Shown here piece by piece: positions 39,611-42,613 of a DNA stretch of 64,000 bases. This DNA comes from Desulfobacter sp. (GTDB lineage Bacteria > Desulfobacterota > Desulfobacteria > Desulfobacterales > Desulfobacteraceae). The stretch spans positions 1,391,622 to 1,455,621 of the forward strand of contig CP054837.1 in the NCBI GenBank assembly GCA_028768525.1. Direction: 5' to 3'. The number at the start of each line of letters is the position of its first letter. Position 1 is the first letter of the stretch. The position numbers and the translations under genes are program-made. The notes beneath the pieces are model-generated. The model was given only the letters and a program-made list of their open reading frames with translations, was not told the origin of the DNA and did no database searches.

Positions 39611-40798
39611 ATGCCCGGCTTTGAAATATTCGGAGATGAAGAACGAAAACAGGTCAACGATGTACTGGAAACAGGGGTCCTGTTCCGATACGGGTTTGAG
39701 GGCGCCAGAAACGGCCATTTCAAGGCGCTGGAATTTGAAAAAAAACTGGCAGATATCACCGGGGCTGGTTTCAGCCACCTCTGCTCTTCCGGCACCGCCG
39801 CCCTGTCCACGGCCCTGGCCGCCTGCGGCATCGGTGCCGGAGACGAGGTCATTGTACCGCCGTTTACCTTTGTGGCCACCTTTGAGGCAGTGATCCACGC
39901 CGGTGCGGTACCGGTTTTTGCCGATATCGATGAAACCCTCTGTCTGGATCCCGACCGCCTGGAACAATTCATTTCTCCCAGAACAAAAGCTGTGGTACCG
40001 GTGCACATGTGCGGCGCCATGGCCAGAATTGATGAAATCAAGGCCTTCTGCGATAAAAAGGGGCTGATCCTCCTTGAAGATGCCTGCCAGTCCCTGGGGG
40101 CCGCCTATAAGGGAAAACACCTGGGCACCTTCGGCCTGGCCGGCTGCTTTTCCTTTGACGCGGTAAAGACCGTGACCTGCGGCGAAGGCGGCGGTATCAT
40201 CACCAGCGACGGGGATGTTTACAGCCGGTGCGACCAATACGCCGACCACGGCCACGACCATCTGGGCGGCCCTGACCGGGGCGCCGACGACCATCCCATC
40301 ATCGGCACCAACTTCAGGATTTCCGAACTCAACGCCGCCGTGGGCCTGGCCCAGCTCAACAAACTGGATCAGATAATTGACACCCAGAGAAAAAACAAGG
40401 CCGCCATCAAGGATGCCATGGCCGACATCGGGGATGTCACCTTCAGGTATCTGCCCGATCCCACGGGGGATTCCGCCACATTCCTGAGCTTTTTTCTGCC
40501 CACGGAAAACCGGGCCCGGGAAATGGCAAAAAAACTGGCCGAAAATGGTGTGCCCTGCCCTTACTGGTATGACAACAACTGGCATTACTACAAAAAATGG
40601 CACCACCTTCAGGACATGAAACGGTCCGCCCCCCTTGCTTTTGAGCTGGCTGAGAATCTGCCCGACTATAAAAACCTGGTGCTGGAACAGACTGAAAATG
40701 TCATGAAGCGCACCCTTTCCATGCAGATCATGCTCTCCTGGACCAAGGAAGAAATCGACCAGCGCATCCAGGCCATTTACAACGCATTTAAAAATTAA
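39611..40798 (+). CDS. kdnA: 8-amino-Kdo transaminase (DegT family)
   Basis: [42 protein letters not shown]; synteny with kdnB-kdsB. Confidence 0.85.
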
Positions 40799-40811
40799 GG
40801 ATAGATATACG

Positions 40812-41879
40812 ATGTTTAGAAATTTCAAACTCGTCCCCAACGTGATTTTCGGCCGGGGATGTTTTAACCAATTGGATGAAATCTTAGGAAACCAGCGGAC
40901 CGCGAAGGATAGCTGGGCCGTTTTTGTGGTGGATGATGTATTCAAGGGCAAGGCGCTGGAAAAACGGATTCCCGCCCAGGCCAACGACCACATCCTATGG
41001 GTGAATGTGGATGACGAGCCCAAGACCGGATATGTGGATGCATTGACCCTGGAAGTCAAAGGGCTGCGCCCCACCCTGCCCTGCGCCGTTATCGGCATCG
41101 GCGGCGGCTCATCCATGGACCTGTCCAAGGCCATTTCACTGATGCTCACCAATGAAGGCTCCTCCACCCTTTACCAGGGATGGGATTTGATTAAACACCC
41201 GGCCATTTACCATGCCGCCGTGCCCACCCTTTCCGGCACCGGGGCCGAGGTATCCAGAACCGCCGTGCTCACCGGCCCTGAAAAGAAACTGGGACTCAAC
41301 TCCGACTACACGGTATTCGACCAGGTGGTCCTGGACCCGGAACTCATTAAAGGGGTGCCCAAAGACCAGCATTTTTACACGGGAATGGACTGCTATATCC
41401 ACTGCATCGAGTCCCTTGAGGGCACCTACCTCAACGAATTTTCCAAGGCCTACGGAGAAAAATCCCTGGACCTCTGCCGCCAGGTATTTTTGGACAACCA
41501 TCCTGACGCAGACGACAAGCTCATGATGGCCTCTTTTTTCGGCGGAATGAGCATCGCCTATTCCCAGGTCGGGGCCTGCCACGCCCTCTCCTACGGTCTT
41601 TCCTATGTCCTGGGCACCCACCACGGGGTGGGCTGCTGCATCACCTTCGACACCCTGGACGAATATTACGCTGACGGGGTAAAAGAATTCAGGACCATGA
41701 TGGAAAAGACCGGAGTGGATATTCCCCGGGGCCTGACTTCCGGCCTCACCGATGAGCAGATGGAAACCATGATCACTGTGGCCCTTGGCCTTGATCCCCT
41801 CTGGGAAAACTGCCTGGGCAGGGACTGGAAAACCATCATGACCCGCGACAAGGCCCGTTCCTTGTTCGAAAAGATGTAG
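40812..41879 (+). CDS. kdnB: Kdo 8-oxidase (metal-containing alcohol dehydrogenase family)
   Basis: [54 protein letters not shown]. Confidence 0.85.
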
Positions 41880-41884
41880 ACGCC

Positions 41885-42613
41885 ATGCCCGTAGCCGTCA
41901 TACCCGCACGATTCGGGTCCAGCAGACTCGAAGGAAAACCCCTGGTAAAAATCGCCGGCAAACCCATGATCCAGCGGGTTTACGAACAGGCGCAGCAGTC
42001 ATCTGTGGTCAGCCGTACCGTGGTGGCCACGGATGACCAGCGCATCGTCAAGGCCGTGGAGTCCTTCGGGGGAGAAGCCCTCATGACCTCGGACACCTGC
42101 CGGTCCGGCACGGATCGGGTGGCTGAAACAGCAGAGCTGCTGGGCCTGGGTCCCGATGAAATTCTTATCAATATCCAGGGAGACCAGCCGGTATTCGATC
42201 CCCGGTGCCTGGATTACATGATCCGCCCCTTTGAAACGGAGAAAGACCTTTCCATGTCCACCCTGGCTTATAGGATTGAAGATCCCAGGGAGATCACCGA
42301 TCCCAAGGATGTGAAAGTCGTCTTTGACAAAAATGGGTCTGCTCTTTACTTTTCCCGGGCCCAGATCCCCTTTCCCCGTGACGGCCAGACCGATGTGGAC
42401 TATTACAAGCACCTGGGGTTCTACGCCTATACCAAACGGTTTCTGGACAAGATCATCACCCTGTCCACGGGTATCTGCGAAGAGGTGGAAAAACTGGAGC
42501 AGTTGAGAATCCTGGAACACGGGTATGCCATCAAGGTGGTGGTTTCCCCCTATGACTCCCCGGAAATCGATCTGCCCGAAGATATCAAACGCATCGAAGC
42601 GAGGCTTTCCTGA
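41885..42613 (+). CDS. kdsB: CMP-Kdo synthetase
   Basis: IPARFGSSRLEGKPL, SGTDR, NIQGDQP, LYFSR, EKLEQLRILE. Confidence 0.95.
   Translation: MPVAVIPARFGSSRLEGKPLVKIAGKPMIQRVYEQAQQSSVVSRTVVATDDQRIVKAVESFGGEALMTSDTCRSGTDRVAETAELLGLGPDEILINIQGDQPVFDPRCLDYMIRPFETEKDLSMSTLAYRIEDPREITDPKDVKVVFDKNGSALYFSRAQIPFPRDGQTDVDYYKHLGFYAYTKRFLDKIITLSTGICEEVEKLEQLRILEHGYAIKVVVSPYDSPEIDLPEDIKRIEARLS

Follow-up and report, generated by a model that had tools for sequence, protein, structure and literature searches.

The 64,000-nucleotide stretch of Desulfobacter sp. DNA examined here (hereafter the window; C1:1391622-1455621 of a single-contig 6.04 Mb genome, 97% complete) contains a kdnA-kdnB-kdsB operon, extended by a glycosyltransferase gene. 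Judged from its genes, this operon probably gives the host a Shewanella-type route to 8-amino-3,8-dideoxy-D-manno-octulosonate (Kdo8N), an aminated form of the lipopolysaccharide (LPS) inner-core sugar 3-deoxy-D-manno-octulosonate (Kdo). The cassette genes are intact orthologues of their Shewanella counterparts, are conserved among relatives of the host, and are under purifying selection. The four genes are as follows.

39611-40798, + strand: kdnA, predicted pyridoxal 5'-phosphate (PLP)-dependent 8-oxo-Kdo:glutamate aminotransferase (Enzyme Commission (EC) 2.6.1.109 type), 395 aa; based on the match to 5K8B, Pfam DegT, the PLP lysine, and the ratio of nonsynonymous to synonymous substitution rates (dN/dS).
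40812-41879, + strand: kdnB, predicted group III Kdo 8-dehydrogenase/oxidase with the iron-containing alcohol dehydrogenase (Fe-ADH) fold (EC 1.1.3.48 type, CDD FeADH3), 355 aa; based on the match to 5K8C, motifs, tree, and dN/dS.
41885-42613, + strand: kdsB, CMP-Kdo synthetase, 242 aa, the sole copy in the genome; based on NCBIfam models and whole-genome tblastn.
42614-43771, + strand: family 4 glycosyltransferase (GT4) gene abutting kdsB, predicted core enzyme; based on Pfam Glycos_transf_1 and Glyco_transf_4.

A preliminary description of this DNA had reported a complete kdnA-kdnB-kdsB set resembling that of Shewanella in both protein sequence and gene order, and each of these claims held. 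The three open reading frames (ORFs) are full length, lie on the + strand, and are separated by 13 bp (kdnA/kdnB) and 5 bp (kdnB/kdsB). KdnA matched Pfam PF01041 (DegT) at 300 bits, KdnB matched both PF00465 and PF25137 (Fe-ADH), and KdsB was above cut-off in four NCBIfam models, including TIGR00466 (220.5 bits, cut-off 155.2) and NF003952 (302 bits, cut-off 193). In a search of all PDB sequences, KdnA aligned end to end with S. oneidensis KdnA 5K8B (residues 1-393 to 1-393, E 4.9e-160, 536 bits), with the next DegT enzyme at 173 bits (E 1e-49). KdnB likewise aligned over residues 2-354 with S. oneidensis KdnB 5K8C (E 2.1e-155, 520 bits). Its second match, 3RF7 (510 bits), was deposited merely as an iron-containing alcohol dehydrogenase, and the next unrelated Fe-ADH fell to 80 bits (E 1e-21). 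Both enzymes therefore scored ~3-6 times higher against the Shewanella proteins than against other solved members of their families. The other DegT paralogues in the host genome were at most 40% identical to KdnA.

The catalytic residues were also retained. The PLP Schiff-base lysine of KdnA, K186 in SFDAVK, aligned with the SFDSVK lysine of 5K8B. KdnB has a GGGSSMD dinucleotide motif from residue 97, and its metal site (D193, H197, H257, H271) was invariant in an alignment that included two distant sister sequences. Compared with the S. oneidensis pathway (KdnA of the SO_2476 type, 5K8B; KdnB, 5K8C; KdsB), the window has the same genes in the same order and on one strand, and the PLP lysine, metal ligands, and GGGS motif are alike. 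The same three-gene order on one strand occurs in Shewanella sp. KJ2020 (L107), where KdnA, KdnB, and KdsB share 60, 61, and 52% identity with the window proteins.

We built a maximum-likelihood tree from 80 KdnB sequences and nine distant representatives. The window KdnB fell in a Desulfobacteraceae clade (SH-like approximate likelihood ratio test (SH-aLRT) 98), within a short-branched KdnB family that also holds the Shewanella/Thiomicrospira/Francisella clade. Clustering away from KdnA/KdnB, which the preliminary description had named as grounds for abandoning the assignment, was thus not seen. Sister branches of KdnB exist at 33-47% identity. Most of the distant representatives (39-47% identity) were placed outside the KdnB family on long branches, and the three placed inside probably reflect long-branch attraction. 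At 50% clustering, the canonical KdnB clade was represented by one full-length sequence with 68% identity. Gammaproteobacteria were nested among Desulfobacterota in the tree, and we drew no conclusion from this about the direction of transfer, as the loci were best matches to a Desulfobacterota query and support was weak.

The upstream region contains two expression signals.

39527-39554, + strand: promoter-like site, TTGAAA and a TG-extended GATATT with a 16 nt spacer; from a consensus scan, with a putative function.
39600-39606, + strand: ribosome-binding site AAGGAGG, 4 nt before the kdnA ATG; read from sequence.

The intergenic block with the promoter-like site is kept upstream of kdnA in two congeners. 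It is also kept upstream of kdsB in congener G024, which is without kdnAB. Because the block precedes kdnA in some genomes and kdsB in the other, kdnAB is flanked by the sole kdsB and the probable promoter of that gene, and this position implies co-transcription with an essential gene. We therefore predict that kdnAB is co-transcribed with kdsB. The GT4 gene, which has a weak WaaG-type PDB match, probably shares the operon with kdsB; it also occurs 3' of kdsB in congeners and in Desulfobacula-type and Desulfarculaceae loci.

Close homologues of the cassette bear the NCBI labels Desulfobacter, Desulfobacula, and Desulfospira. Of 24 congeners sampled, 20 had KdnB, as did 9 of the 16 other families sampled in the order, and the selB/hemW/radical S-adenosylmethionine (SAM)/kdnA/kdnB/kdsB/GT4 order was kept within the genus. 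Pairwise dN/dS against six congeners was 0.06-0.10 for kdnA, 0.06-0.08 for kdnB, and 0.07-0.15 for kdsB, ratios that are approximate because dS was high. kdnA and kdnB are under strong purifying selection (dN/dS ~0.07). In the complete genome of congener G024, the corresponding locus reads selB-hemW-radical SAM-kdsB-GT4 and lacks kdnAB (L109, G024:C1:6573000-6590000), which makes for a clean presence/absence polymorphism of kdnAB at one locus within the genus. A metagenome-assembled genome assigned to the same genus (G010; 90% complete, 7% contamination) contained a variant module (L111, G010:C74:3913-7958) of an Fe-ADH with only 31% identity to KdnB, a KdnA-like protein with 50%, and a KdsB with 54%. 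Both loci thus combine an Fe-ADH, a KdnA-like protein, and KdsB, but the window has canonical KdnB (61% to Shewanella), whereas the G010 module has another Fe-ADH.

A gene for a 392 aa radical SAM protein (38247-39425, - strand) is divergent from kdnA. It had weak ELP3/OxsB-type PDB matches, and we found no NCBIfam model or informative family match for it. The gene adjoins kdnA across the Desulfobacter/Desulfobacula clade, after hemW, and is <5 kb from kdnB in three Desulfobulbia loci (L037, L040, L064). We considered a functional link with kdnAB and rejected it, since the gene also adjoins kdsB in G024, which is without kdnAB; we treat the arrangement as synteny. A + strand ORF at 38241-39200 was discarded as a shadow of the radical SAM gene, with 34-48% conservation versus 59-72% for the - strand frame.

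By analogy with the characterised Shewanella enzymes, the route would start from free Kdo, the product of KdsD, KdsA, and KdsC, whose genes are elsewhere in the host genome (kdsA and kdsC at C1:576541-577808, kdsD at C1:20464-21273). KdnB, with its metal and dinucleotide sites, would oxidise Kdo at C8 to 8-oxo-Kdo, and the PLP enzyme KdnA would transaminate this product with glutamate as donor. Kdo8N would then be activated with cytidine triphosphate by the sole KdsB and moved by WaaA onto lipid IVA. No second kdsB was found by tblastn of the whole 6.04 Mb genome, which has two weaker cytidylyltransferase matches near 1.81 and 1.85 Mb. The gene content predicts that Kdo8N is incorporated into LPS, where an amine beside the lipid A phosphates may lower the net negative charge of the inner core. 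According to PMC4402001, in its summary of Gattis et al. 2013, the Shewanella genes sufficed for Kdo8N2-lipid A when placed in E. coli, and their deletion in Shewanella gave greater sensitivity to polymyxin and bile salts.

The predicted effect, a positive charge near lipid A with less binding of cationic peptides and metals, is the same as that of the ArnB/ArnT (4-amino-4-deoxy-L-arabinose, L-Ara4N) and EptA/EptB systems. The chemistry and enzymes are unrelated, however. The Arn and Ept enzymes act at the periplasmic face, on lipid A or Kdo that is already complete; Kdo8N would instead enter at the sugar-nucleotide stage in the cytoplasm.

Relatives of the cassette are numerous. More than 8000 clusters at 90% identity reached E <= 1e-60, and at least 585 loci with a relative were present in reference genomes sampled at one genome per species. 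The 80 best of these loci included members of Desulfobacteria, Desulfobulbia, Desulfarculia, Syntrophia, Thermodesulfobacteria, Cloacimonadota, and Gammaproteobacteria, the last including Shewanella, Thiomicrospira, Thiomicrorhabdus, Sulfurivirga, and Francisella. Gene arrangement varied: the kdnA-kdnB-kdsB order was present in the Desulfobacter/Desulfobacula group, six Gammaproteobacteria, one Desulfarculaceae, and one Cloacimonadota. Most other Desulfobacteria had kdnA-kdnB without kdsB, and 16 Desulfobulbia had kdnB alone. The solitary Desulfobulbia kdnB (L037, L040, L044, L064, L084, and others) was canonical (65-70% identity) among unrelated neighbours, and an unlinked KdnA-like gene (44-46% identity) was found in Desulfobulbia, ~220 kb away in Desulfopila sp. 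IMCC35008. A KdnB-type match was present in 30 of the 301 genomes sampled across the phylum.

The preliminary description had presented the cassette as predicting Kdo8N in a lineage with no chemical report of it. That much stands for Desulfobacter: the pathway genes are present, and we found no chemical report of Kdo8N in Desulfobacter LPS in the literature searched. The cassette is less special than this suggested, being widespread and already labelled, as close homologues are called "Kdo 8-oxidase" in JGI metagenome annotation. Systems of this kind are known, and the family is recognisable by annotation pipelines (KEGG-style, JGI).

Two candidate specialisations of the downstream enzymes were rejected. 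A KdsB specialised for Kdo8N and co-transferred with kdnAB was not supported, as KdsB identity across the 301 phylum genomes formed a plateau at ~45-62% with or without KdnB. KdnB was found in 0 of 8 genomes of family f42, yet their KdsB was 55-57% identical to that of the window, and the Shewanella KdsB (52%) sits on the same plateau. Nor did we retain a WaaA paralogue dedicated to Kdo8N, since either WaaA type may adjoin kdn genes in other lineages.

Several points weigh against a functioning Kdo8N route of the Shewanella kind in this host. NCBIfam contains neither a KdnA nor a KdnB model, and hence there is no curated cut-off for either protein. We found no Kdo kinase (PF06293) in the 97%-complete single-contig genome, and the same search recovered the kinase of Shewanella sp. 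KJ2020 at 222 bits. The names for KdnB in PDB and JGI are those of an 8-oxidase, and its EC class, 1.1.3.48, is that of an O2-using oxidase. The host genome had dsrA above cut-off and a weaker second match just downstream, at the position of dsrB, which indicates a dissimilatory sulfate reducer, here of the Desulfobacterales. Members of the genus Desulfobacter are strict anaerobes. A strict need for O2 could confine the pathway to periods of oxygen exposure.

We favour, with some reserve, the reading that KdnB is an O2-independent dehydrogenase in vivo, using bound or exchangeable nicotinamide adenine dinucleotide (NAD+) or another acceptor. Kdo8N would then be constitutive and widespread in anaerobic Desulfobacterota and other anaerobes, and here would sit in a core that lacks Kdo 4-phosphate. 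We infer turnover independent of O2 from the obligately anaerobic life of the host and the Shewanella-like catalytic residues of its KdnB. The strong constraint on kdnB and its probable operon with the sole kdsB, again in an obligate anaerobe, also argue that O2 is not the physiological acceptor.

It is improbable, though the best of the alternatives, that KdnB needs O2 and that Kdo8N synthesis is restricted to encounters with oxygen, as an oxygen-triggered remodelling of the inner core. Besides the 8-oxidase naming, the KdnB activity of Gattis et al. 2013 reportedly used metal and O2 and not added NAD(P)+, and the host encodes a cytochrome bd oxidase, so it meets and handles O2. However, kdnAB has a conserved promoter-like block on one side and the sole kdsB on the other, with nothing to suggest that it is regulated separately. 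Canonical KdnB is kept in numerous lineages of obligate anaerobes, among them Desulfobulbia, Syntrophia, and Cloacimonadota. An oxidase producing H2O2 would also be costly for an anaerobe. The GGGS dinucleotide motif is intact, and the 5K8C structure is said to contain tightly bound NAD(H) along with zinc.

We think it very unlikely that KdnA and KdnB aminate another ulosonic acid, such as a nine-carbon sialic-acid-like sugar or capsule Kdo, instead of inner-core Kdo. The sister branches of KdnB at 33-47% identity would allow for such a substrate, as would the several other DegT aminotransferases and the two weaker cytidylyltransferase matches in the genome, but the window enzymes share ~60% identity with those of Shewanella and group in one clade with them, not with those branches. 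They are also encoded in one operon with the sole kdsB, adjoining the LPS core locus, and no NeuB-type gene was adjacent in Pfam and NCBIfam scans. Several DegT aminotransferases were clustered with the two weaker cytidylyltransferase matches at C1:1.80-1.87 Mb. The genes there are probably separate sugar-tailoring clusters, perhaps for nonulosonic acids, apart from the Kdo8N operon.

Least credible of all is the view that the cassette is a passenger without function in the host, either newly arrived by transfer or in decay: the patchy distribution (KdnB in 30 of 301 sampled phylum genomes) and the polymorphism at one locus within the genus would fit it, but the frames are intact and full length with dN/dS ~0.07, local G+C (0.535-0.555) resembles that of most of the window, synteny is kept within the genus, and KdnB is in 20 of 24 congeners.

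The Kdo8N route would feed an inner core that probably differs from that of Shewanella. One Kdo transferase gene is in the window.

58137-59606, - strand: waaA paralogue 1, Kdo transferase, a likely user of CMP-Kdo8N; based on PF04413 (183.7 bits) and its place in an lptF-lptG-waaA-lpxK-lpxL-heptosyltransferase block.

This WaaA scored 349 bits with NCBIfam NF004388, below the equivalog cut-off of 438, and is accompanied by heptosyltransferases I and II, lpxK, lpxL, lptF, and lptG. The cassette had been described as standing at the end of the lipid A/core locus with waaA, which is broadly right: waaA is ~15.5 kb from the cassette, and core/O-antigen glycosyltransferase genes, heptosyltransferase genes, lpxL, and lpxK are between them. 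The longest-ORF calls of waaA, lptG, and lptF (58137-61829, - strand) overlap by ~145-160 bp and their profile matches start 47-65 residues in, so the true starts are probably downstream of the listed ones. The other WaaA paralogue (427 aa, 27% identity to the window protein) is encoded at C1:976318-977601 (L108:8319-9602, + strand), divergent from msbA (L108:6492-8333, - strand).

Having two Kdo transferases but no Kdo kinase, the host may divide the work of inner-core building in an unusual way. The Shewanella core contains a single Kdo8N 4-phosphate; each Kdo replaced by Kdo8N shifts the mass by -0.98 Da, and its C8 resonates near 44-45 ppm (PMC6357163). With no Kdo kinase and two WaaA paralogues, such a structure would be improbable here, and the inner core is probably not the Shewanella single Kdo8N 4-phosphate. 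The window host, an obligate anaerobic sulfate reducer without Kdo kinase, is thus set apart from Shewanella, which has one; the two WaaA paralogues and the GT4 appended to the operon are further differences.

G+C in the cassette region was 0.535-0.555. At 44000-53000, between conserved core genes, it dropped to 0.37-0.48 compared with ~0.55 in the flanks. This low-G+C segment contains genes for an O-antigen ligase, FkbM, TylF, and other methyltransferases, DUF6492, and GT2/GT4 glycosyltransferases, and looks like an exchangeable outer-core/O-antigen segment.

Canonical kdn genes are fixed in a genus of strict anaerobes, strongly constrained, and placed between a promoter-like block and the sole kdsB. 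Kdo8N has been regarded as a hallmark of Shewanella (PMC6357163, PMC4402001). If the reading favoured here is true, Kdo8N would not be a Shewanella speciality. Should the sugar indeed be made, the classing of KdnB as an oxidase by EC would need revisiting, and an extra amine would be expected in the inner core of many sulfate reducers from marine and sediment settings, which bears on the binding of metals, sulfide minerals, and cationic peptides. The locus challenges the oxidase label and predicts a core architecture unlike that of Shewanella. It also offers, in congeners with and without kdnAB at one locus, a natural comparison for LPS chemistry and for the function of Kdo8N.

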